Shown: piece by piece, positions 53,173 to 64,000 of the stretch | How the letters are laid out: every line of letters begins with the position of its first letter | Position numbering within the stretch: position 1 is the stretch's first letter | From: Desulfamplus magnetovallimortis | GTDB taxonomy: Bacteria > Desulfobacterota > Desulfobacteria > Desulfobacterales > Desulfobacteraceae | Length of the DNA stretch: 64,000 bases | Direction of reading: 5' to 3' | Assembly: GCF_900170035.1 (NCBI RefSeq) | Contig: NZ_LT828551.1 | Coordinates: forward strand, 104,163-168,162 | The notes under the pieces: model-generated | What the model was told of the DNA's origin: nothing | Seen by the model: the letters and a program-made list of their open reading frames with translations, nothing else | The model's database searches: none | Translations under genes and position numbers: made by a program

Positions 53173-53757
53173 TCATGCCCGTTTACTGTACAAACCATCG
53201 GTAGCTATATGGTTCACACCATGGGAGATTAAGTATTCTTTGTTCTTTTTGATTTGTTGAAGATAGAAGTCGATGCGGTTTTCTTCTTCTTCACCAATTT
53301 CATAGCTGGAAGGGGTTTGCTCAACAGAGAGATTGTATGCGGTATTGTAGTCCAAATCGATAATTGCGAGGGATGAAATCTCTTGACCTTTTTGGGACTT
53401 ACCCGCAACGCCACTCCAGAATTTGTCTATCCCATAGCTATGCTTACCTATTTTGGGAACATAAGAAGCATCTATAGCAGCTATTCGTTTATTGGTATTT
53501 GGGATAGTGTCCATAATCAGCAGGTGATTGAAAAGTGTAAAATCGAATGATTTTCTAAAATTTCTCGAATAACTTTTCTCATTCAAATTGCTATAGCGCC
53601 CCATGTTGCGAAAGTTCATTCGACCTTGTAGTAGCATTATAGTTGAAAAAAGTGTCAGTAAAAATTTATGCTGATGTTTGGTTATTTTGGACAAAATACA
53701 GTTTATTGTTCTCATAGAGATCTCCTTTGTTGGACTGTAATGTTGTGTGTAAAACAT
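53173..53757 (-). mobile_element. IS701-like (IS4 superfamily) DDE transposase, C-terminally truncated remnant
   Basis: AAIDASYVPKIGKHSYGIDKFWSGVAGKSQKGQEISSLAI resembles the IS701 DDT...K.GK.S.GV..QY.G..GK..NCQ block; the second Asp region ATDGLYS is present; the catalytic Glu region is absent. Confidence 0.55.
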
Positions 53758-53840
53758 AATCTTCCAATTTTGGAAAACTCTTGTCCATCCTTTTTTTTAT
53801 GTTTCAAAAAAACTGTCCGAACTATTGGTTTAGACACTGA

Positions 53841-56800
53841 TTATAAATTTAGTTGCTGGTGATTCAAATAGTAATAAAGACCTTTTTTGCCCATAAGCTC
53901 TTCATGGTTTCCCTGCTCAACCACCTCACCCTTATCAAGGACAATAATGGTATCTGCACTGCGAACAGTACTCAGACGATGGGCAATGATTATGGCGGTT
54001 CTGTTTTTTAATATTGTATCCATGTTTTTTTGTATAGCCTGTTCAGACTCAATGTCCAGAGAACTTGTGGCTTCATCAAAGATAATTATTCCAGGATTTT
54101 TATATAGAACACGGGCAATGGCAATCCTTTGCATCTGTCCACCTGATAACTGCAATCCAGATTCTCCAACCTTTGTTTCATAACCATTGGGGAAATTAGA
54201 GATAAAATCATGTGCATTGGCAAGCTTTGCTGCGGATATAATTTTTTCCATTGTGGCAGAAGGATCATCCGAAGAGATGTTGTCCCCAATTGTTCCACTG
54301 AATACAAAGCTGTTCTGGAGTACATAACCCACATTGGATCTTAAAAAGGAAAGATTTAAATTTTTGATATCAAAACCACCAACTGATATTGAACCTTCAT
54401 TGGCATGAAAAAACCTTGCTATGAGGTTTACAAGGGTTGTTTTACCTGATCCGCTGCGTCCCACAATGGCACATCTTGTTCCAGCAGGAATCTCGATATT
54501 GATATTGGATAGAATCCAGGGGTCATCAACACCGCCATATCTAAAAAATACCTGTTCAAATCTTATATTGCCGGAAAGCTTCTCCATGACTATGCCCGGG
54601 GATTTACCATCCCTTTCACCATATTCGGTTTTAGCTGCAAAAACATCATTGAGGCGGTCAACCGAGACCAGGGTCTCCTGTAGTTGATCCCATACAGTTA
54701 TAATTCGATTAATGGGGGTGACAACGCTTCCCATGAGGGCCATGAAAGCCATGAGTTCACCAACTGAAATATTATGTTTTATAACTTCATGGGCACCATA
54801 CCAAAGGATAATAGTGGAACCAAGTGTTCCCATGAAATCGCCAAGGGAGTGGAAATATATTTTTAGATGGCTGAGGGAAAACTCTATATTGATACTTTTT
54901 ATAAATTTGTTTTCCCATTTCCATCTTATCTGATTTTCAAGGTGCATCGCTTTTACTGTATCTATGGCCTTAATGGATTCAATCATATGGGATTTTGCTT
55001 CAGCTCCGGCAGCAAAGGCATCAATATTGAGCTTTTTTAAAAACGGAGTAAATCCAAGGGTGATGGCAATGAAAAAAGGGATAAACAAGATCACAAGAAG
55101 AGTCATATTGGCGTTATAATAAAGCATAAGCCCTAAATAGATTATGATGAGAAAGGTATCCAGAACAACGGTCAAAGCTGTCTGAGTCATAAAAGTTCTT
55201 ATTTTTTCATTTTCACCAAACCTTGATACAAAATCGCCAATTTTTCTGGCCTTAAAGTAACCAAGGGGCAATGCCAATAGATGTTTGTAAAATGAAACCA
55301 GCATACTTATATCAATTTTCATGCTTGTATGTACAATTAGGTACTGCCTGACAATGGTTATCAATATTCTGAATATAAGAACAATAAGCATTCCTATTAA
55401 CATAATGTTAAGAAAGGATATGTTTTCGTGGTACAATACCTTATCAACTATATTCTGGGTAAAAACAGGGGTGGCAAGGCCAAGTAAATTCAGGAGCATG
55501 GACGCAAGGAAAATCTCTGCAAGGATCATTTTATGGGGAGTAACAAAACCAATAAATTTTTTCAGGGAAGATTGTTTATCCACCTCCTGGTTACCCAAAA
55601 GTGGTGTGGGTTCAATAATAAGGGTGATTCCATTCCAGTTATCTGAAAAATATTCCCTGTGGTATTTTCTGAGACCCATGGCCGGGTCTGCAACCCATAC
55701 ATATTTTTTTGAAACTTTGTAAACAACACAATAGTGGTAACCCTGCCAGTGAATAACACAGGGCAACTTTATATCAAGGAGCCCATCAAATTTGATTTTT
55801 ATCCCCCTGGTCAAAAAGCCCAGGTGTTCAGCTGCCGAGGCAAGGTTGGAAAGGGTTACACCTGAGTTATCTGCGTGGGAAAGCTCGGAAATTCTGGCCA
55901 GGGAAAATTTTTTCCCATAAAAACGGGAAATCATCACAAGACAGGCAGGGCCGCAGCCCATCTCGTCATGCTGTCTTACAAAGGGAAAACGCAATCCGTG
56001 GTATTTTTTTTTCGCTGTGGATGGGGATGATGTATCTATGGTGTTCTGCTCTACCTCCGGTGGCTTTTCCCTGTAATCCCGGGTTTGATTCAATTCCCCT
56101 TTGTTGTGTTCAGGTTGTGTGTCTGTATATATATTTGGGGTGATATTGGGGGGAGATATGGAGCGATACTGGTGCAGTCTGTCGGAGAATAGCGATTTAA
56201 GATCCGGGGATTTCTGGATCAGTTCTTTAAATGTGTCTCTGCTCAATGCAAAAAGATGACAATTTGTCAGACAGACAACATCTGCATATCGTGGGCTATC
56301 CTCAATTAGTGCCTTTTCCCCGAAAAATTCCCCCTGGTGAAGAAAATTAATTATACTTTGATCTCCATCTTCCCATTTTATAACCTTTAATTTCCCCGAT
56401 TCAATTAGATAAAATTTATCAGGCTCATCCCCCTGCCTGAAAATCCCTTCCCCTGCCATAAAGGATTCTGGGTTGAAATTTTTCACAATCTGCTGTACAT
56501 CCTTGGGCTTTAGAGGAGATAAAAGGGAGCAACCCTTTAAGAAAAGCTGAATTGATGTGGAATGGATAAACTTATCAAAATAACCACGGATTTCAGGTTT
56601 GCTGAAAACAAATTTTTCAAAGATTTCATTATCTATGGCTATCAAAAGAGATTGTTCAACAGCCCTTGCTGCTGCATTTCTGGGTCTATGGGAAATCAGG
56701 GCAGTTTCCCCAAAGTGATCTCCACGGGTTCTCACCCCCATGTTGATCTCTTTACCGCTGTTGTCCTTGAAAATAATTCTGATTCTGCCGCTGTATATGA

Positions 56801-56960
56801 TATAAAAGCAGTCACCTGCATCACCCTGGTCAAAAATCAAATCCCCGGCTTGTGATGATACAAACCTTGAGTTTTTGGCGATATACTGCAATGACTCATC
56901 TGATAAAATTGAAAATAGCCACAATTTTCTTAAAAATAATTCAGTATCGTGCATCTGCAT
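53841..56960 (-). CDS. Peptidase-containing ABC transporter (PCAT): two N-terminal cyclic-nucleotide-binding domains, C39 Cys-peptidase, 6-TM ABC permease, ABC ATPase
   Basis: cNMP-binding-like ..FDQGDAGDCFYIIYSGRIRI.. and ..FRQGDEPDKFYLIESGKLKV..; C39 HDEMGCGPACLVMISRFYGKKFS; Walker A GRSGSGKTT; signature LSGGQMQRIAIAR. Confidence 0.85.
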   Translation of the reverse strand: MQMHDTELFLRKLWLFSILSDESLQYIAKNSRFVSSQAGDLIFDQGDAGDCFYIIYSGRIRIIFKDNSGKEINMGVRTRGDHFGETALISHRPRNAAARAVEQSLLIAIDNEIFEKFVFSKPEIRGYFDKFIHSTSIQLFLKGCSLLSPLKPKDVQQIVKNFNPESFMAGEGIFRQGDEPDKFYLIESGKLKVIKWEDGDQSIINFLHQGEFFGEKALIEDSPRYADVVCLTNCHLFALSRDTFKELIQKSPDLKSLFSDRLHQYRSISPPNITPNIYTDTQPEHNKGELNQTRDYREKPPEVEQNTIDTSSPSTAKKKYHGLRFPFVRQHDEMGCGPACLVMISRFYGKKFSLARISELSHADNSGVTLSNLASAAEHLGFLTRGIKIKFDGLLDIKLPCVIHWQGYHYCVVYKVSKKYVWVADPAMGLRKYHREYFSDNWNGITLIIEPTPLLGNQEVDKQSSLKKFIGFVTPHKMILAEIFLASMLLNLLGLATPVFTQNIVDKVLYHENISFLNIMLIGMLIVLIFRILITIVRQYLIVHTSMKIDISMLVSFYKHLLALPLGYFKARKIGDFVSRFGENEKIRTFMTQTALTVVLDTFLIIIYLGLMLYYNANMTLLVILFIPFFIAITLGFTPFLKKLNIDAFAAGAEAKSHMIESIKAIDTVKAMHLENQIRWKWENKFIKSINIEFSLSHLKIYFHSLGDFMGTLGSTIILWYGAHEVIKHNISVGELMAFMALMGSVVTPINRIITVWDQLQETLVSVDRLNDVFAAKTEYGERDGKSPGIVMEKLSGNIRFEQVFFRYGGVDDPWILSNINIEIPAGTRCAIVGRSGSGKTTLVNLIARFFHANEGSISVGGFDIKNLNLSFLRSNVGYVLQNSFVFSGTIGDNISSDDPSATMEKIISAAKLANAHDFISNFPNGYETKVGESGLQLSGGQMQRIAIARVLYKNPGIIIFDEATSSLDIESEQAIQKNMDTILKNRTAIIIAHRLSTVRSADTIIVLDKGEVVEQGNHEELMGKKGLYYYLNHQQLNL

Positions 56961-56987
56961 AAATTCAAATCCTAAAGCCCATAAAAA

Positions 56988-58568
56988 TTAATCACAGCAG
57001 ATAATTTCTGTTTGATTAATAAACCAGGATAGCTCCATTCTGATATGATAATATTTTCCCACAAGCATAAGATACTCCTGTTTAAGTGCTAAAAGTTCAT
57101 ATTCTGATGCTATAAGTTCTTGCTGGTAATCAAGGAGATTAATTACTGTTGTTCTTTCCTGAACAAGCCTTTCAACTTCATTTTCAAGATTCTGCTTTGA
57201 AAGGGCGACAATCTCACGGGAATATGCAATTTGCCTGTCAAGGTCAGTGAGGTCATCATATATTCCAATTATCTCTTTTTTAAGTTCCGCAGTTCTTTTT
57301 TTAATGCTGTTATCAATATTTGTTATCTGTTTTTTTACAATTGAAATCCGTGCATGGTTTCCATCCTGTTTCAGGGGAATTTCAAAGGATGTTTTAAAAG
57401 CCATGAAATGGTTGGCAGTATCAATATCTTTAAAAGCTCCATCCAATCCATTTGGGTCATATCCATTGATACCGGCCTGGAAAACAACGTCAAGTTTTGG
57501 TTTTGCCCTGTCCAAGGCAATAAGAAGATCCTGCTCAAGTTCCTTTTTACTATATTCAAGGGAGATTAAAAAAGAATCCATTGCCAACACATGTTCAATT
57601 GTCTGTTCCTTTGAAGCAGGTTTAAACAAGTTAATTAATGATTTTGAACATGTCACAAGTTGCAGGGTTCCATCCAATCGGTATTGGGAACTGTTATTGT
57701 AAATTAAAAGGAAAAGATTTTGTAGATAGCCATCCCTTTGATTTTCCAGCTCTAAAATCTTTCGCTCCTGGAATATATGGGCGGCTTTCATTCTGTTAAG
57801 ATCTGTGATGGTCATATATCTAAGGGCTACTTTTTGCTTTATGATTTTATAAAGCTTAAAGGTTCTATCACGAATTTTTTTTTGTAAACTTAATCTTTTG
57901 TTAATAAAATAGAGATAGTAGTATTGATTGAACATCTTAAATATTGTGTTGCTTAAGATAATCTTATTTTCCTCTTCTGATCTTTTTAAATTTATTTTTG
58001 CTTTTTTAATGGGGGCATTTGTTATTTCTTTTCCCCTTCCCTGCATAACAGGCTGGTCATATTCCATGAAAAATGAGCTTTGATATTCTTTTGGGCTTTC
58101 AATGGAATAGATATATTCTATCTCTTCCATTGAAGCTGTTACATGGATAGATTCCTTGCCGCCAAAAATATTTTTTCGGCTTATCCCTGTAGTATATAAT
58201 TGAATATCCCATGCAAGATAGTTATCCACATTTAGGCTGTTATATCGCCTCCTTTCAAAGGTGCTGTCTGCCTGAAATCGGGGAATGAAGATCTCTTCCT
58301 GGATTGATAGGTTTTTTTCTGCAATATCCCTTGAGACAGTGCTGCTCTGGATATCCATGCTATTTTTAAGGAGATCATTTTGGGCTGAGTAGAGAGAAAG
58401 GGAAGATAAGGTCTTTGCATTATCATTATCCAAGGCATAATTATCCCGTGCATAATATGGACTATCCTTTTCCATGGCAAAAGTAATATTAAAGGAAAAA
58501 GAAATGGTAGAAAGAAACAGAGTTAGTAATGTTAAACTGAATAATATTAAAATAGATTTTCCTGTCAT
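56988..58568 (-). CDS. TolC-like outer-membrane efflux protein (putative), co-oriented with and upstream of the PCAT gene
   Basis: Signal peptide; two long heptad-rich helical halves; context. Family assignment is tentative. Confidence 0.5.
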   Translation of the reverse strand: MTGKSILILFSLTLLTLFLSTISFSFNITFAMEKDSPYYARDNYALDNDNAKTLSSLSLYSAQNDLLKNSMDIQSSTVSRDIAEKNLSIQEEIFIPRFQADSTFERRRYNSLNVDNYLAWDIQLYTTGISRKNIFGGKESIHVTASMEEIEYIYSIESPKEYQSSFFMEYDQPVMQGRGKEITNAPIKKAKINLKRSEEENKIILSNTIFKMFNQYYYLYFINKRLSLQKKIRDRTFKLYKIIKQKVALRYMTITDLNRMKAAHIFQERKILELENQRDGYLQNLFLLIYNNSSQYRLDGTLQLVTCSKSLINLFKPASKEQTIEHVLAMDSFLISLEYSKKELEQDLLIALDRAKPKLDVVFQAGINGYDPNGLDGAFKDIDTANHFMAFKTSFEIPLKQDGNHARISIVKKQITNIDNSIKKRTAELKKEIIGIYDDLTDLDRQIAYSREIVALSKQNLENEVERLVQERTTVINLLDYQQELIASEYELLALKQEYLMLVGKYYHIRMELSWFINQTEIICCD

Positions 58569-58828
58569 AAGAAATCAGCTCCCATGATCATATTTTGCTG
58601 CTTTTCACCAGGTGTTGTTAACAGAATATGACACAACGTCAATATAGGTTTATATATTGATATTAAATCTTGACAAAAAGAGAATTAAAGTGTGATAAAT
58701 AAATATTGATGCCCACCATAACTTAATTTTTCTGTTTTTTGAATTGTTATATGCAAATATTTGATATCCTATGATATCCTATGCGATACTTTGCCTTTGT
58801 CTATTGTTTTTTATGAAAAAATATTTAC

Positions 58829-58845
58829 TTGGCATATAAAATGCT
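58829..58845 (+). promoter_or_regulatory. Candidate sigma-54 (-24/-12) promoter tTGGCAtataaaaTGCt about 185 nt upstream of the precursor gene; an adjacent direct repeat gatatcctat x2 (58763-58782) lies upstream
   Basis: GG-N10-GC spacing read directly; speculative. Confidence 0.25.
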
Positions 58846-59028
58846 TTTATAAAAATACAAACAGGATAACTTACCTAAAGCATAACAATGAAGGGTAGTG
58901 TCATAAAAGTGTTGATTTCTTTTTGTGAAAGCCCTGCTGAATCAAGGTTTGTGAAGAGCTCATCAACATATTTGGGACACCACCCAATGAAGTTCATATT
59001 AACACAAATAAAATAAGGAGAAATAATC

Positions 59029-59253
59029 ATGGCACGTATTCAAATTAAAGATCTGGCAGAGAATCAGACAATTTCAAAAGAAGACCTCAAAAGAGTAAAG
59101 GGCGGTTTTGTTATGATGGATAATGTGTTCAGTGGGATTACACCTGAATATAAATTCTCACCTGAATATAAATTCTTTAACACTGCCCAGTTTATCACTT
59201 CAGGTCAACTGGTGGAAAATATGGAAAGTATTTTATATGAAAAATGGTTCTAA
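59029..59253 (+). CDS. Double-glycine (GG) leader peptide precursor: 26-aa leader plus 48-aa Cys-free aromatic-rich core with PEYKF(S/F) repeat
   Basis: Leader MARIQIKDLAENQTISKEDLKRVKGG fits the GG-leader consensus (hydrophobic at -4, -7, -12; acidic at -8/-9; GG at -2/-1). Strong SD aaggag 8 nt upstream. A cognate C39 transporter sits 460 bp away. Confidence 0.7.
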   Translation: MARIQIKDLAENQTISKEDLKRVKGGFVMMDNVFSGITPEYKFSPEYKFFNTAQFITSGQLVENMESILYEKWF

Positions 59254-59307
59254 ACACCCATTTACCAGTTCATATGAAAAATGGATCTAAACACCCATTT
59301 ACCAGTT
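59234..59307. repeat. 37-bp tandem direct repeat (2 copies) spanning the precursor stop codon (tatatgaaaaatggttctaaacacccatttaccagtt / catatgaaaaatggatctaaacacccatttaccagtt)
   Basis: Read directly. Confidence 0.9.
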
Positions 59308-59370
59308 GCTGCCATCCCCGATGGTGAAAACACGATCTATTTTGACATCCTTCATATCAACTCAAAATTA

Positions 59371-59398
59371 GTTTACATTTTTCGAAAAAAGTGTAAAC
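59371..59398. promoter_or_regulatory. Near-perfect 28-nt palindrome gtttacatttttcgaaaaaagtgtaaac between the precursor and the downstream gene (intercistronic hairpin)
   Basis: Read directly; no U-tract follows. Confidence 0.4.
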
Positions 59399-59464
59399 CG
59401 ACAAATGAAAGATCCCTGTATTTTAATGATAAATTATTAGATTATGGGTTTAGAATGCCAATAA

Positions 59465-60568
59465 ATGGAATGGACAGACCAAATGACAACTGCACGAATA
59501 ATTGATTATCTTCCTGATATTTATAATGGAATCCTACCCGATTTTTTTGAAAAAACAATTCCAAGGGAAACGGCTGCCACATGTGAAAGTTGTGCCATGT
59601 GGCAGCCTGCAACAACATCGGGCAAGGAAAACAAGACTTTGAGATCCTTTTCCAGGGAAAGCAAATGCTGCACCCATTATCCCAATATCCCCAACTATCT
59701 CCTTGGGGGATTTCTCTCCCATAAAAAAAGTGACGATGCCAAAAAAATCCTGGATATTATTTCAAATAGCCCAGGTCACACCCCAAGGGGTATAGTTCGC
59801 CCCAAAAAAATTCAATTCCTTATGGAGAATTCCCAACGCAGCTTTTTTGGAAGATCAAAAACCCTTATATGTCCATTTTTTGACAAGGAAAAAGGATATT
59901 GCACCATAAGACCCTTTTGGGATGCTGTGTGCAACACCTGGTTTTGTAAGTATGTCAAAGGTTATGATGGATTTCAGTTCTGGGTGGCGATTCGGAAATA
60001 TTTAAGCTATGTGGAACAGAGTTTAATACAATTTGCCATGTACAACTTGAATTGTAATCCCGAAAATATAGAAAACCTGGTTTCCAATGAACAGCCAGGG
60101 CCTTTATCACTGGGAGATCTTGACGATTTGCCTCTGGATAGAAATAGGTATCTTTCGCAATGGGGAAAATGGGCTGGACGTGAAATAGAATTTTATAAAA
60201 AATGTTATGAACTGGTCTTAAAAATGACAAGGCCGCAGTTTGAAGAGATTACAGGTATTACCCAGAAAATAAACCTTGCCGTTGTAAAATCAAAATACAG
60301 TGATCTTTTCTCCACAGATCTGCCCAGGGTATTAAAGAAAAATTCGTCCATGGTTGAAGAAAAGATAGAAGGGGATCAATATCTGATCATGGGTTATTCC
60401 ATGATCGACCCATTTCTAGTACCCAAAAAACTCTATGAAATACTAAGTTTTTTTGATGGTAACCAGGATGTTGAAGCTACCTGCAAAATGATAAAAGAGC
60501 ATACCGGTTTTGTCCCTGACCATGACCTGCTTGTGGAACTTTACCGCTTCAGGATTCTTACTACTTGA
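59465..60568 (+). CDS. Cysteine-rich protein of unrecognised family (C-x2-C...CC and C-x9-C-x9-C-x4-C clusters), co-transcribed with the GG-leader precursor; candidate peptide-modifying or accessory enzyme
   Basis: CESCAMW...KCCTHYP and CPFFDKEKGYCTIRPFWDAVCNTWFC; weak resemblance to YkgJ/FliB-type CxxCxxCC metal-binding proteins, not confident. Confidence 0.5.
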   Translation: MEWTDQMTTARIIDYLPDIYNGILPDFFEKTIPRETAATCESCAMWQPATTSGKENKTLRSFSRESKCCTHYPNIPNYLLGGFLSHKKSDDAKKILDIISNSPGHTPRGIVRPKKIQFLMENSQRSFFGRSKTLICPFFDKEKGYCTIRPFWDAVCNTWFCKYVKGYDGFQFWVAIRKYLSYVEQSLIQFAMYNLNCNPENIENLVSNEQPGPLSLGDLDDLPLDRNRYLSQWGKWAGREIEFYKKCYELVLKMTRPQFEEITGITQKINLAVVKSKYSDLFSTDLPRVLKKNSSMVEEKIEGDQYLIMGYSMIDPFLVPKKLYEILSFFDGNQDVEATCKMIKEHTGFVPDHDLLVELYRFRILTT

Positions 60569-60643
60569 ATCTATATATTTTGAGTCTATGCTTTTTGAGT
60601 TTTTTAATTTTTGAATTGATTGTACCCTGTTTGCATTGTTCTC

Positions 60644-60667
60644 CCCCTCTCCAGAGATGGAGAGGGG
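60644..60667. terminator. Hairpin cccctctcca-gaga-tggagagggg between convergent genes, followed by a G-run
   Basis: Read directly. Confidence 0.4.
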
Positions 60668-60713
60668 CAGGGGGGTGAGGTTTGGCAAACTGGATGATCA
60701 AAAAACGGAACAC

Positions 60714-61121
60714 TTACATATTTCCATTGAGCCATATTTGAAAAGCCATCTCTCGAACCATATTTTTTGTATCGTCATGGGATAGAAGAGCATCCATGGT
60801 GATCTCTTTTTCAAGCTTGTCCTTTAGGTGTTCAATAATGATACTTGTCTCAATATGATTTTCCAGTGCTTCAAGGGTAACTCCTTTGGATTTTATCCAT
60901 GCTTCTGTGTCCTCAGCCTTATTAAGTCCATGGGCAGCCCTGAAGCTGTCAAAGGCCCCTTGCAGTTCCTGGTCAGTTACTTCCATCCCCATTTTTTTTG
61001 CATTGTCAGCAGCAACCTTTCTTTGGAAAAGATTTGCCAGAGCAGGCTTTAATTTGTCTGTAATTTTAAGATAGTCAAATATTTCATTCTGGGTAAACTC
61101 CAAATCTTTTATTTTAATCAT
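60714..61121 (-). CDS. SurA/PrsA N-terminal chaperone-domain-like protein (no isomerase domain)
   Basis: VTDQELQGAFDSFRAAHGLN parallels ISVSDEELTQFSDHYRLITGLN of the adjacent parvulin protein's N-domain. Confidence 0.45.
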   Translation of the reverse strand: MIKIKDLEFTQNEIFDYLKITDKLKPALANLFQRKVAADNAKKMGMEVTDQELQGAFDSFRAAHGLNKAEDTEAWIKSKGVTLEALENHIETSIIIEHLKDKLEKEITMDALLSHDDTKNMVREMAFQIWLNGNM

Positions 61122-61140
61122 TGCGTGCCTCCTTAAATCT

Positions 61141-61770
61141 TTACGATGTTTTTTTGCTATCCGTAACAGTAAATGGTTGATTTATTATTCCACTGCACCA
61201 TTCATTCCAAATAACCTCTTCAACAACCCTTTGTACCTCCTCACTTTCAGGCGATGGTTTTATAAGTTCTTCAAGTTTTACAATATAATGGAAACCATCA
61301 ACCTCAAGGGGATCTATTATCGTGCCAGGCTCGGATGTGAAAATTTTGGATGCTAAATCAGAAGGAAGCATATTTCTGTATATAATTCCAACATAACCGG
61401 ATTTCCACTTGAGATCATCATCTGTGTTGTATTGCCTTGCAAGGGTATGAAAATCCTCTCCATCCTCTTCAATTCGCATCATAAGTTCATTTGCAAGGTT
61501 CTTTGAATCAACTATGATTTGGGATATCCTTGCCTTTTCAAACTCTGCTCTGTGTGCCATATAATAATCAAGAACACTCTTTTGCGTGGCCATCTCTTTT
61601 TTTATCTTTGAAATTAATATTTTTGCTTCACATAAATCTTCATATATATCCTGGTTAATGGCAATGCGATGGAAAAAGGCAAGGGTTTCATCTGCTGAAT
61701 TTAAACCTGTTATTAACCTGTAATGATCTGAAAATTGTGTCAGCTCTTCATCTGAAACAGATATACCCAT
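61141..61770 (-). CDS. Parvulin-type peptidyl-prolyl isomerase with N-terminal chaperone-like domain
   Basis: ARISQIIV...EDGEDFHTLARQYNTDDDLKWKSGYVGIIYRNMLPSDLASKIFTSEPGTIIDPLEVDGFHYIVKLEE matches the parvulin/rotamase fold pattern. Confidence 0.7.
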   Translation of the reverse strand: MGISVSDEELTQFSDHYRLITGLNSADETLAFFHRIAINQDIYEDLCEAKILISKIKKEMATQKSVLDYYMAHRAEFEKARISQIIVDSKNLANELMMRIEEDGEDFHTLARQYNTDDDLKWKSGYVGIIYRNMLPSDLASKIFTSEPGTIIDPLEVDGFHYIVKLEELIKPSPESEEVQRVVEEVIWNEWCSGIINQPFTVTDSKKTS

Positions 61771-62045
61771 CTCCTCTGCCTTTTGGAAAATCTCCTTGAT
61801 ATGTACAATTTCAGATAAAATCTTGTCAGCCCTGCCTGAAAAAAAGAGATAGGTTATTATTTCTTCTGGTTGAATTGCATTATATTGAACAGAATCAGAC
61901 TGAGTAGAACCGGATTTTGCAGAACCGGATTGAATGGAGAGATGTTTTTTTTATGAAAATTCCATGTTTTTACAATTTGGAGGTTTTCATTATTGTTTTG
62001 GGGAAGTGATTCGTCATGGCAGTTATACAAAATTTCCATATATTT

Positions 62046-62255
62046 ACTCCTTTGATATATCATCATCAAGGTCAGGGTACAATTCCTTTGTACAATCAGG
62101 GCAGATTCCATGGCTAAAATGGGCATTGGAATGTTCCATGATAAAAGTTTCCAGTTGATTCCAATATCCACTGTCATCCCTGATTTTTTTGCAGGATGCA
62201 CATATTGGGATTAAACCGCTCAAAGTCTTGACCTGATTTAAGGCAGTCTGGAGTT
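62046..62255 (-). pseudogene. Start-less 70-codon remnant encoding the Cys-rich module ...PICASCKKIRDDSGYWNQLETFIMEHSNAHFSHGICPDCTKELYPDLDDDISKE*, the same domain as the C-terminus of the response regulator at 12168-12875
   Basis: Manual translation of the minus-strand frame; the frame opens right after a TAG with no usable start codon; the overlapping track ORF (61857-62201) is in a different frame. Confidence 0.45.
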
Positions 62256-62389
62256 GCTAAAAAATGATTTTGCTGTTTCAAGGGCAATCAATTTCGTTTT
62301 TTGCTTTTCATATTTAACATTTAAACATAGCAAGATTGAAACTATGACAATCCATATTGAAACTGTAATGTATGTAATTAATTTGATTT

Positions 62390-63703
62390 TCATGGGGTTT
62401 TAAAAGCAGATACCTTATTATAAAAAATGGAAAGCAGGCTTTTCTTTTCGGTAATCATTTCAGCAACTGCAGTCATTCCGGGTTTTAAGGGACAAGATCG
62501 TCCATGTACATTAAATGATCTATTATTTAATGCCCCTTTTACCTTATATACAAACACTCCATGTTTTTCCTCAATGGCTGAGGGAGATATGGCAATTACA
62601 TATCCGTTAATTGTTCCATAATCCCTATGGGGAAATGCATCAAATTTATATTTTACAGGCATATCAACTTCAATGAAACCAATATCTTTGTTTGCAACTG
62701 TGATATCCATATAATATGGTTCATCTGCTGGAATAACAGTACATAAAACAGTTGATGGGTTTACATATTCTCCTTTGTTTAAAAAAAATAGCCTGGAAAC
62801 AATGCCGGATTTTGGTGTAAAAATGTTATACTCCCCTGTTTTTTCATTGGAAAGTGCATTAACTTTACTGGAACCATTAAATTGCAATTCATTTTGGAGC
62901 TTTCTAAGCTTTGCCTGTAAGGAGTTCATGGTATTTTTCTGTTCAAGCAATATGTTTTCTATTTTTTTATCAATAATATTTTCTTGATTTTTCTTTTCAG
63001 CCTCTGTTTTTTTAATATTTTGGGCAATAATATCCTTCTCTTTTAGAAAAATACGTTTTTGTGAATCAAGTTTTTTAACTTCGGTTTTTGCCAATTCAAG
63101 GCGTCCTTTTACGCTATTATATTCAGCAATGGATGTTAATTGCTTTTTGAAAAGTATCTGGGTATTTAAAAACTCCTGCTTTCGATTTTCGATCTCTTTT
63201 TTCCAGTAAGTAAAGTCACTTTGAACCTGTTCAAGGGATATGGATATTTTTTCCATGGAAAGAGCAAAGGAGTGTTTCATATTTTCCAGCTCATCTTTTA
63301 AGTACTCTATCTCTGTTTCCATGGCATCAATAAGGCTTTTATAGTATCCTTTTTTAAATTCAATCTCTTCCTGAACAGATTTCAGTTCTGAATATTGGGA
63401 CATATTGATTCTGGTTTTTATGGTAAAAAGTAGATCTCCTTCATCCACAAAAGCACCATTTTCTATGGATATCTTATCTATAAAACCATGAAATTCAGAT
63501 ACCACCTGCATTTCATGGGACAAGGGGCGGACAATAGCACTGCCTTCACGGATGATATCCACTTTACAAAGGGCGGAATAGAACAAAATAGATATAATTG
63601 CCAAAAAAATAATGTAAAGTATCCCCCTGGCATAGATGGAGGGCATACGCTTTAATTGCTCAACAACAAAAAAATTATCATAATTTTCATTGGTTGATAA
63701 CAA
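62390..63703 (-). CDS. HlyD-family membrane-fusion (type I secretion / bacteriocin export) protein
   Basis: N-terminal TM, long coiled-coil, C-terminal beta-barrel ...GMTAVAEMIT.KKSLL..F..; family-typical. Confidence 0.85.
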   Translation of the reverse strand: MLSTNENYDNFFVVEQLKRMPSIYARGILYIIFLAIISILFYSALCKVDIIREGSAIVRPLSHEMQVVSEFHGFIDKISIENGAFVDEGDLLFTIKTRINMSQYSELKSVQEEIEFKKGYYKSLIDAMETEIEYLKDELENMKHSFALSMEKISISLEQVQSDFTYWKKEIENRKQEFLNTQILFKKQLTSIAEYNSVKGRLELAKTEVKKLDSQKRIFLKEKDIIAQNIKKTEAEKKNQENIIDKKIENILLEQKNTMNSLQAKLRKLQNELQFNGSSKVNALSNEKTGEYNIFTPKSGIVSRLFFLNKGEYVNPSTVLCTVIPADEPYYMDITVANKDIGFIEVDMPVKYKFDAFPHRDYGTINGYVIAISPSAIEEKHGVFVYKVKGALNNRSFNVHGRSCPLKPGMTAVAEMITEKKSLLSIFYNKVSAFKTP

Positions 63704-63712
63704 TTGAGTCCA

Positions 63713-64000
63713 CTATATCCTCTGTTTTAGTTCCTTCCATAAATCTACAAAAGCCAGTGTTTCCTTTTCATCGGGGGCAAATTCAATCAAAGGCTTCTGA
63801 TGGATACCCATCTGTTCAATCAGGGATCTATATGGTATTGATACAGATAAACATGTGGGATCATGGGCACATTTTTCCATGGTCTCCCTGTGCATCTTTT
63901 TGCGGCTATCCAACATGTTAAAGAAAAACAATATTTCAGGTTTTTGACGAAGTGTACTCAAATGTTCCCTGATCTGGTTCAGGGATTGAATGGATAAAAT
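63713..64000 (-). CDS. ParA/MinD-family ATPase, C-terminal part only (gene continues beyond the window end)
   Basis: ...FFNMLDSRKKMHRETMEK....IPYRSLIEQMGIHQKPLIEFAPD resembles ParA C-termini; the frame is open to the window edge. Confidence 0.5.
   Translation of the reverse strand: MLSIQSLNQIREHLSTLRQKPEILFFFNMLDSRKKMHRETMEKCAHDPTCLSVSIPYRSLIEQMGIHQKPLIEFAPDEKETLAFVDLWKELKQRI

Follow-up and report, generated by a model that had tools for sequence, protein, structure and literature searches.

We analyzed a stretch of 64,000 nucleotides from Desulfamplus magnetovallimortis (contig NZ_LT828551.1, positions 104,163 to 168,162; hereafter the window), which contains at positions 53173-63703 the genes of a putative double-glycine (GG) peptide system. 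This locus is probably a reduced and rearranged member of a conserved, unnamed system for maturation and export of peptides of the RiPP (peptide made by ribosomes and modified after translation) type, as judged from sequence comparison and gene order. The original prediction, made from the sequence alone, had linked a GG-leader precursor, a Cys-rich protein of 367 aa, a peptidase-containing ABC exporter (PCAT) with cyclic-nucleotide (cNMP)-binding domains, HlyD and TolC-like proteins and a parvulin/SurA-like pair into one undescribed system, and this proposal is supported by synteny across phyla and by a shared leader family.

The precursor belongs to a conserved leader family

The precursor is a 74-aa open reading frame (ORF) with a 26-aa leader (MARIQIKDLAENQTISKEDLKRVKGG) ending in GG, followed by a 48-aa core without cysteine. 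A Shine-Dalgarno sequence (AAGGAG) is located 8 nt 5' of the ATG. A sigma-70 promoter scan was uninformative, its best match ending 2 nt before the ATG. Small ORFs beside homologs of the 367-aa protein on unrelated metagenomic contigs share nearly identical first 26 residues, while their cores are unrelated. The consensus of this leader family is 'MARIKIKDLPKD.K.SKEE.KK..GG', with hypervariable cores behind it. The window leader ends in KGG (residues 24-26), and the GG columns are invariant across 30 family members.

A hidden Markov model (HMM) of the leader picks the window ORF with E=7.7e-14 among 13,333 ORFs and finds 1-6 copies in each of the 15 loci fetched via a 367-aa homolog, in addition to the window. 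When 5.8e9 proteins were searched with the leader profile, at least 218 members were obtained at E<=0.01, including the window ORF (P0220, E=2e-13); almost all of them are unnamed or annotated as 'hypothetical protein'. The 74-aa ORF is, far beyond chance, a real gene and a precursor of the 'MARIKIKDLPKD' leader family, and its predicted GG leader was confirmed by the leader HMM and the family search. The original prediction had been staked on conservation of the precursor in related genomes, and the precursor is conserved in these members and loci. It matches no Pfam or NCBIfam family, and a leader domain of NHLP or Nif11 type is absent. Six-frame and HMM searches of the window detected no second precursor.

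Rather than being an orphan, the core is a diverged member of a recognizable core subfamily, since it aligns with P0214, P0230, P0264 and L019:882-1094 (P and L denote our numbered leader-family proteins and related loci). The subfamily shares a segment of the '(S/T)(G/S)PT(D/N)(Y/F)(I/L)K(I/L)D' type and a C-terminal 'Y(E/I/D)KW'. The PEYKF repeat reported for the core is present, but it is an 18-bp in-frame tandem duplication (window 59141-59176) encoding PEYKFS/PEYKFF. Behind it, a 37-bp repeat copies the last codons of the precursor, its stop codon and the 3' untranslated region, with 33 of 35 bases identical at offset 37. Both duplications are recent.

Two further features of the cores recur. 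In one precursor subfamily the core copies the first ~27 residues of Hcp, the tube protein of the type VI secretion system (e.g., ...FLKIEGTPGESTDDKHKDWIEVL...). Such cores are found at L001:8701-8880, L003:7710-7877, L008:9536-9715, L011:325-504, L015:2956-3135 and L019:527-739 and in P0186 and P0193; they score above the Pfam gathering score for PF05638 (26-32 bits), and some sources annotate them as 'Hcp'. A core that is Hcp-like by eye also follows a Nif11 leader in L020, where PF05638 gave no match at E<=10. In addition, 'PQPEPP' or 'PQPDPP' stands soon after the GG site in many cores and across leader types (L001, L002, L006, L008, L011, L070, L093; P0191), and several of these precursors are encoded directly upstream of the 367-aa homolog.

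The window genes correspond to a single operon in relatives

On contigs assigned to Desulfarculaceae, Syntrophaceae, Desulfobacterales, Nitrospirae and Latescibacterota, and on several unassigned metagenomic contigs, the system is encoded in one co-directional operon. Its first part consists of the genes for the TolC-like protein, the cNMP-C39-ABC exporter (~1035 aa), HlyD (~450 aa), the parvulin-like protein (247 aa) and the SurA_N-like protein (~136 aa). These are followed, often after a gene for a Phd/YefM-like protein, by one to several precursors, the 367-aa homolog and often more precursors interleaved with tailoring enzymes. At least eight independent contigs, which come from different phyla, carry this set without interruption and in one direction. 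The four gene groups of the original prediction are present in the window, but in relatives they form one operon.

Relatives usually add B12 radical-SAM methyltransferases, and their matches to TIGR03975 ('RiPP maturation radical SAM C-methyltransferase') reach 581-638 bits against a cutoff of 282. Other tailoring genes in relatives encode other B12 radical-SAM, SPASM and YcaO-TPR proteins, a LanM-type lanthipeptide synthetase, a glycosyltransferase and an unannotated family of ~375 aa. The tailoring enzymes differ between loci, with the 367-aa protein as the constant element. Like the window, L008 (GCA_900174595.1) is a minimal cluster without a radical-SAM enzyme.

GG-leader precursors accompany the 367-aa homolog in every close relative with enough flanking sequence. 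Approached from the precursor side, 4 of 4 separate leader-anchored loci (L089 with its near-duplicate L090, L091, L092 and L093) encode a 367-aa homolog with 38-45% identity, and because of this we regard the protein as the hallmark of the system. It is the one non-transport protein in all related loci with enough flank to judge. Homologs beside other leader types (Nif11-type, ComC-like and others) also adjoin GG-leader peptides, as found in Propionivibrio ('MKKDQMKKD.EISAEDLEQVSGG'), a Sandaracinaceae metagenome-assembled genome (MAG; true Nif11 leader), Sulfidibacter and a gammaproteobacterial MAG. A PCAT is present in the Sulfidibacter (L074) and gammaproteobacterial (L007) loci, with none within 10 kb in the other loci just named; a PCAT was also recorded at L077.

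Some accessory genes of these clusters deserve mention. A protein of Phd/YefM fold (64-88 aa) is encoded in most related clusters; five compared copies are 67-84% identical and lie at

L004:8402-8605
L006:7118-7324
L089:9093-9290
L092:9490-9684
L008:11763-11990

Its N-terminus, 'M(T/A)KIKIKDLE', is nearly the same as the first ten residues of the precursor leader, and the protein may compete for the binding site of the leader, e.g., as a feedback regulator. The window SurA_N-like protein begins with MIKIKDLEF, unlike its orthologs. The unannotated ~375-aa family is encoded at L003:13397-14530(-) and L004:8743-9870(-) and also in L005, L010, L012 and L015. Its C-terminus (...AGLHC(L)(I/V)TE) resembles the catalytic Cys motif of enzymes that modify guanidino groups, with a faint match to dimethylarginine dimethylaminohydrolase (DDAH; E=0.14), and a tailoring role in the modification of peptidyl-arginine is possible for the family. 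L093:1-20189 is taken up by a very large cluster with the 'MARIKIKDLPKD' leader, in which at least seven precursors are interleaved with radical-SAM-type enzymes. Of these enzymes, three are B12-binding as confirmed by Pfam and four are other radical-SAM-type proteins, including one SPASM enzyme; the cluster also contains a 367-aa homolog and a large glycosyltransferase, and a LanM-like gene lies at the contig edge.

The 367-aa protein combines eight conserved cysteines with a predicted RRE-like domain

A 'conserved hypothetical protein' recorded for Desulfamplus magnetovallimortis matches the 367-aa product with 100% identity. Met7 (59483) is the start in its homologs as well as in the NCBI model. 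It has no Pfam or NCBIfam match even at E<=10, so that the earlier statement that the protein cannot be placed in any family holds. Scans of 31 homologs and 16 diverse distant members (including Myxococcus and Sorangium proteins) against both collections gave no family beyond sub-threshold PF03692, and comparison of the family profile with PDB sequences gave nothing meaningful. A word-indexed search returned only 38 relatives; an exhaustive HMMER profile search gave 1,877 cluster representatives (clustering at 50% identity), of which 1,101 had E<=1e-30. A common housekeeping family, the outcome that would have spoken against the original prediction, was not found: the protein co-occurs with GG-leader precursors and has an RRE-like (RiPP-recognition-element) domain.

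From N- to C-terminus the protein consists of a domain containing the eight conserved Cys, a helical middle part and an RRE-like domain. In an alignment of 32 members the cysteines are arranged as C40-x2-C43, C68-C69 within an invariant KCCT(H/Y)(Y/F)P, and C136-x9-C146-x9-C156-x4-C161. E35, K67, T70, D220 and W233 are invariant as well, and the C-terminus carries the motif 'L(D)FFDG(K)(R)(T)..E....I.......P...LL..LY.(F)R(I)L'. The window protein retains every family-invariant residue. Its AlphaFold2 model, which is of good confidence (pLDDT 83, pTM 0.85), shows strands followed by three helices in the C-terminal ~80 residues (pLDDT 84-97), which are predicted to adopt an RRE fold. On the basis of this model the C-terminal domain would be an RRE-like leader-binding module. 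Pfam PqqD gave no match to the family at E<=10. As in RiPP loci, the precursor gene is clustered with a protein bearing a predicted leader-recognition domain.

The exporter is intact and the PPIase-like proteins lack signal peptides

Domain scans confirmed all of the predicted export and PPIase-like genes, i.e., those for the PCAT with cNMP-binding domains and for the TolC-like, HlyD, SurA_N-like and parvulin-like proteins. In the PCAT two stretches of PF00027 cNMP_binding (160.6 bits) are followed by Peptidase_C39 (PF03412, 126 bits), ABC_membrane and ABC_tran. None of the catalytic residues Cys336, His409 and Asp425 or of the motifs Walker A, LSGGQ and Walker B has been lost, and the conserved triad points to a catalytically competent C39 exporter for GG substrates. 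With the exporters of L001, L008, L089 and L092 the protein shares 58-59% identity. The TolC-like gene lies 27 bp upstream of the PCAT gene and its product is 29% identical to the L001 ortholog (E=6e-59, tblastn); HlyD shares 39% identity with its L001 ortholog (E=2e-106).

The SurA_N-like protein is also 39% identical to its L001 ortholog. It is paralogous to the parvulin-like protein in the SurA_N-like part of the latter (40% identity over 91 residues). With TIGR04500 the two window proteins reach 51.4 and 58.4 bits and the L001 ortholog 105 bits, in each case below the cutoff of 180. Reading of the N-termini revealed no signal peptide on either of these peptidyl-prolyl isomerase (PPIase)-like proteins, which would therefore be cytoplasmic, unlike SurA or PrsA.

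Gene layout and state of the window copy

Every ORF of the original prediction was recovered at the position given there. The features of the locus are

53173-53757, minus strand: partial IS701/DDE_5 transposase remnant (PF13546 DDE_5, 32.7 bits, profile positions 12-120 of 272; NF033540 IS701, 22.9 bits against a cutoff of 150)
53841-56960, minus strand: PCAT with two N-terminal cNMP-binding domains, 1039 aa (Pfam)
56988-58568, minus strand: OEP/TolC-like outer-membrane channel (PF02321 OEP, two stretches)
59029-59253, plus strand: precursor peptide, 74 aa (leader HMM and leader-family profile search)
59237-59310, plus strand: 37-bp tandem duplication after the precursor (sequence reading)
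59281-59505, plus strand: spurious 74-aa ORF made by the 37-bp duplication
59465-60568, plus strand: 367-aa hallmark protein, probable true start at 59483 (homolog comparison)
60714-61121, minus strand: SurA_N-like protein, 135 aa (PF13624, 25.5 bits, just under the cutoff of 27.2; TIGR04500, 51 bits against a cutoff of 180)
61141-61881, minus strand: parvulin-type PPIase-like gene (ORF from the first ATG 61141-61770, 209 aa; Rotamase, Rotamase_2 and Rotamase_3 above cutoffs)
62044-62393, minus strand: inserted gene remnant, a 51-aa transmembrane-like ORF and a 59-aa Cys-rich C-terminal fragment (ORF list; weak Pfam matches only)
62390-63703, minus strand: HlyD-type membrane-fusion protein (PF13437, PF16576; TIGR01843, 148 bits against a cutoff of 209)

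Read on the minus strand, the order is HlyD, parvulin-like, SurA_N-like, the inverted unit of precursor and 367-aa gene, TolC-like, PCAT and the insertion sequence (IS) remnant. The canonical operon is thus found in the window in a rearranged, reduced form. When the whole 64-kb window was searched by tblastn, no gene for a B12 radical-SAM enzyme (two query enzymes), YcaO, the Phd-like protein or the 375-aa family was found, and the window contains no recognizable modifying enzyme. The genes for export, for the 367-aa protein and for the precursor, by contrast, are intact.

The coding homology of the parvulin-like gene runs ~110 bp beyond its first ATG, to ~61881, as residues 8-246 of the 247-aa L001 ortholog align by tblastn at 61881-61162. 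The canonical start has been lost, leaving at best an N-terminally truncated protein of 209 aa. A short direct repeat, AATCCGGTTCT, occurs twice at window 61771-61925, where the parvulin-like orthologs start. The adjacent insert holds a 59-aa Cys-rich ORF at 62044-62223(-), which contains ...ICASCKKIRDDSGYWNQLETFIMEHSNAHFSHGICPDC... and has no significant Pfam match; it looks similar to the Cys-rich module at the C-terminus of sensor proteins from deltaproteobacteria. The insert between HlyD and the parvulin-like gene is a remnant outside the conserved cluster, as is the IS701/DDE_5 remnant, which flanks it.

The GC content is 31-39% in the cluster and 41-47% in the secA/argC flank. The original prediction had suggested IS-linked acquisition; both the low GC and the IS remnant are compatible with it, but neither proves it. 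At the HlyD end the island is adjoined by a partial ORF, 63713-63961(-), which resembles, by a weak match, the C-terminal end of a ParA/NifH-like ATPase and continues past the window edge.

Alternative readings of the locus

Several observations weigh against a peptide maturation and export system at this locus. Some of them concern the hallmark protein, whose N-terminal Cys-rich domain has no structural neighbor in the PDB and in which neither a catalytic motif nor a known enzyme fold was found. Sub-threshold matches to the CxxCxxCC family (PF03692) occur in 7 of 41 different members scanned, the clearer ones on HMM positions 7-69, while alignment of the family profile with E. coli YkgJ by hhalign was not significant (probability <1%). 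Distant members (mainly Myxococcota, 31-38% identity) mostly have no PCAT, HlyD or recognizable precursor within 10 kb, so that peptide clusters are not the only setting of the wider family. Others concern the window itself: the gene order is scrambled relative to every relative, the upstream frame of the parvulin-like gene (61770 to ~61881) contains no ATG, GTG or TTG, an insert of ~600 bp separates HlyD from the parvulin-like gene where relatives have a gap of 21-83 bp, and tandem duplications are found in and after the precursor.

Regarding PF03692, the best family member reaches 18.3 bits against a gathering score of 23, and the window protein has no match. The C-x9-C-x9-C-x4-C arrangement around 'CTIRPFWDAVCNTWFCK' resembles the C-terminal motif of the CxxCxxCC/UPF0153 family (YkgJ), but the CxxC and CC motifs of the 367-aa protein are 24 residues apart. 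The flagellin lysine-N-methylase FliB belongs to the CxxCxxCC family.

The broad 367-aa family may have additional roles. In the neighborhoods of the Myxococcus and Sorangium homologs no consistent partner genes were found, and the neighbors differ between the genera. Many homologs are encoded in the Myxococcota loci L021-L069. Immediately upstream of the 367-aa homolog of Myxococcus xanthus AM003, an ORF of 134 aa (L052:9497-9901) was found that is Cys-rich and has a hydrophobic segment at its N-terminus.

The 367-aa protein might be a non-catalytic adaptor or scaffold that binds the leader for tailoring enzymes and the exporter, in which case the window product would be an unmodified 48-aa peptide of the class-II-bacteriocin-like or signalling type. 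For this somewhat unlikely reading it speaks that the RRE fold is the only recognizable functional element, that the N-terminal domain matches no enzyme, and that the protein stays constant while the tailoring enzymes vary by locus. However, for a mere adaptor a domain of 280 residues, with its eight conserved Cys and numerous invariant polar positions (E35, K67, T70, D220), is large, and the minimal clusters (window and L008) keep the protein though they have no enzyme for it to serve.

Alternatively, the window locus could be the decaying, non-functional remnant of a horizontally acquired cluster, from which no peptide is made or exported. The scrambled order, the lost parvulin-like start, the ~600-bp insert and the 37-bp and 18-bp tandem duplications at and in the precursor fit such decay, as do the absence of the Phd-like and radical-SAM genes, the adjacent IS remnant and the low GC. 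We consider it improbable, since the large ORFs are all full length with intact motifs, the 367-aa protein keeps all family-invariant residues, the precursor keeps its leader, GG site and Shine-Dalgarno sequence, and an internal ATG could still yield the 209-aa parvulin-like protein.

That the exporter set is a generic type I secretion or bacteriocin exporter, brought next to the 367-aa and PPIase-like genes accidentally by IS-mediated shuffling, would suit the divergent and convergent units beside the IS remnant but is highly improbable, as it is contradicted by the synteny of the same set in the contigs from different phyla described above.

Proposed mechanism

If the locus is a working member of the conserved system, maturation would start with the RRE-like domain of the 367-aa protein, which would capture the leader as an added beta-strand. 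The eight-Cys N-terminal domain may bind a metal (Zn or Fe-S) and, once loaded, would either modify the core by an unspecified chemistry or hold it for partner enzymes. The parvulin/SurA_N-like pair may act as chaperone or partner on cores that contain Pro, by analogy with MirC. The PCAT would then cleave after Gly26 of the Gly-Gly site and, together with HlyD and the TolC-like channel, expel the 48-aa product across both membranes, with a nucleotide ligand gating export via the tandem cyclic-nucleotide-binding (CNB) domains, as suggested by the analogy with HetC. As the radical-SAM tailoring enzymes and the Phd-like gene are absent here, the product would carry at most a modification by the 367-aa protein.

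It is conceivable, although we regard it as doubtful, that a new RiPP class has its founding enzyme in the 367-aa family, which would be leader-guided and metal-dependent (Zn or Fe-S) and would install an as yet undescribed modification, with parvulin/SurA-like chaperones and nucleotide-gated export. A bolder version of this reading takes the Hcp-like cores and their diverged relatives, including the window core, for mimics that would be secreted and disturb the assembly of Hcp, or a different process of beta-strand addition, in competitors.

Comparison with known systems

The system resembles the NHLP/Nif11 RiPP systems (proteusin-type) in having one conserved leader family on hypervariable cores, several precursors per locus and export by a dedicated C39-ABC transporter with HlyD. 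In addition, relatives of the window cluster carry TIGR03975 B12 radical-SAM enzymes, and the distant relative L020 has a true Nif11 leader. In difference to them, the window leader is of the short 26-aa 'MARIKIKDLPKD' type, the window PCAT has two CNB domains and reaches 539 bits on TIGR03796 against a cutoff of 853, and the 367-aa protein and the PPIase-like pair are outside the NHLP/Nif11 definition (TIGR03796/03797 exporters). Searches by tblastn with two TIGR03975 radical-SAM enzymes found none in the 64 kb of the window.

For the PPIase-like pair the closest comparison is MirC, a characterized TIGR04500 member, which is a SurA-like, PpiC-related partner in the biosynthesis of rosaritide, a graspetide (PMC13097080). 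The graspetide ligase MirB gives no product without MirC, and the C-domain of MirC was reported to be unlike the PPIase domain of its closest structural homologue, Cj1289 (PMC13097080). In both cases a cytoplasmic SurA-like protein is encoded in a RiPP-type cluster with a PCAT, and MirC is required there as a partner or chaperone of the maturase. However, two separate genes are present here, one with a bona fide parvulin domain by Pfam, and no ATP-grasp ligase. The pair is best likened to a chaperone or partner because MirC, as a TIGR04500 member, has that role.

HetC from Nostoc PCC 7120 has an essential CNB domain that binds ppGpp in vitro (PMC10986499), and the window PCAT has the same architecture of CNB, C39 peptidase and ABC exporter. 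HetC is depicted with one CNB domain, in contrast to two in the window protein (PMC10986499). It also lacks a neighboring membrane-fusion protein and has no known substrate, whereas the window PCAT is accompanied by genes for HlyD, for a TolC-like protein and for an evident GG substrate. In contrast to the RRE/PqqD-like leader-recognition domains of RiPP maturases (PqqD, TbiB1, TfuB1, LynD, NisB, TigE), the RRE-like domain here has no radical-SAM, YcaO, dehydratase or protease partner but is fused to an unannotated Cys-rich domain.

Implications

The overall scheme of leader peptide, RRE-bearing protein, tailoring enzymes and PCAT is known. In the literature searched no description of the system, its leader family or the 367-aa family was found. 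The leader family, the Cys-rich RRE protein and their fixed association with a tandem-CNB PCAT and with a parvulin/SurA_N pair located in the cytoplasm appear to be undescribed together and have no curated model.

RiPP discovery is driven by hallmark enzymes, and this locus points to a large family without a Pfam or NCBIfam model, which unites an RRE-like domain with an uncharacterized eight-cysteine domain. The window and L008 are the cleanest starting point for studying the function of the 367-aa protein, because in them the hallmark is isolated from other tailoring enzymes. The system also offers a defined peptide substrate for PCATs with cNMP domains, of which HetC, for which no substrate is known, is the one characterized example. 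If the 367-aa protein proves to be catalytic, the system could become a new RiPP class.

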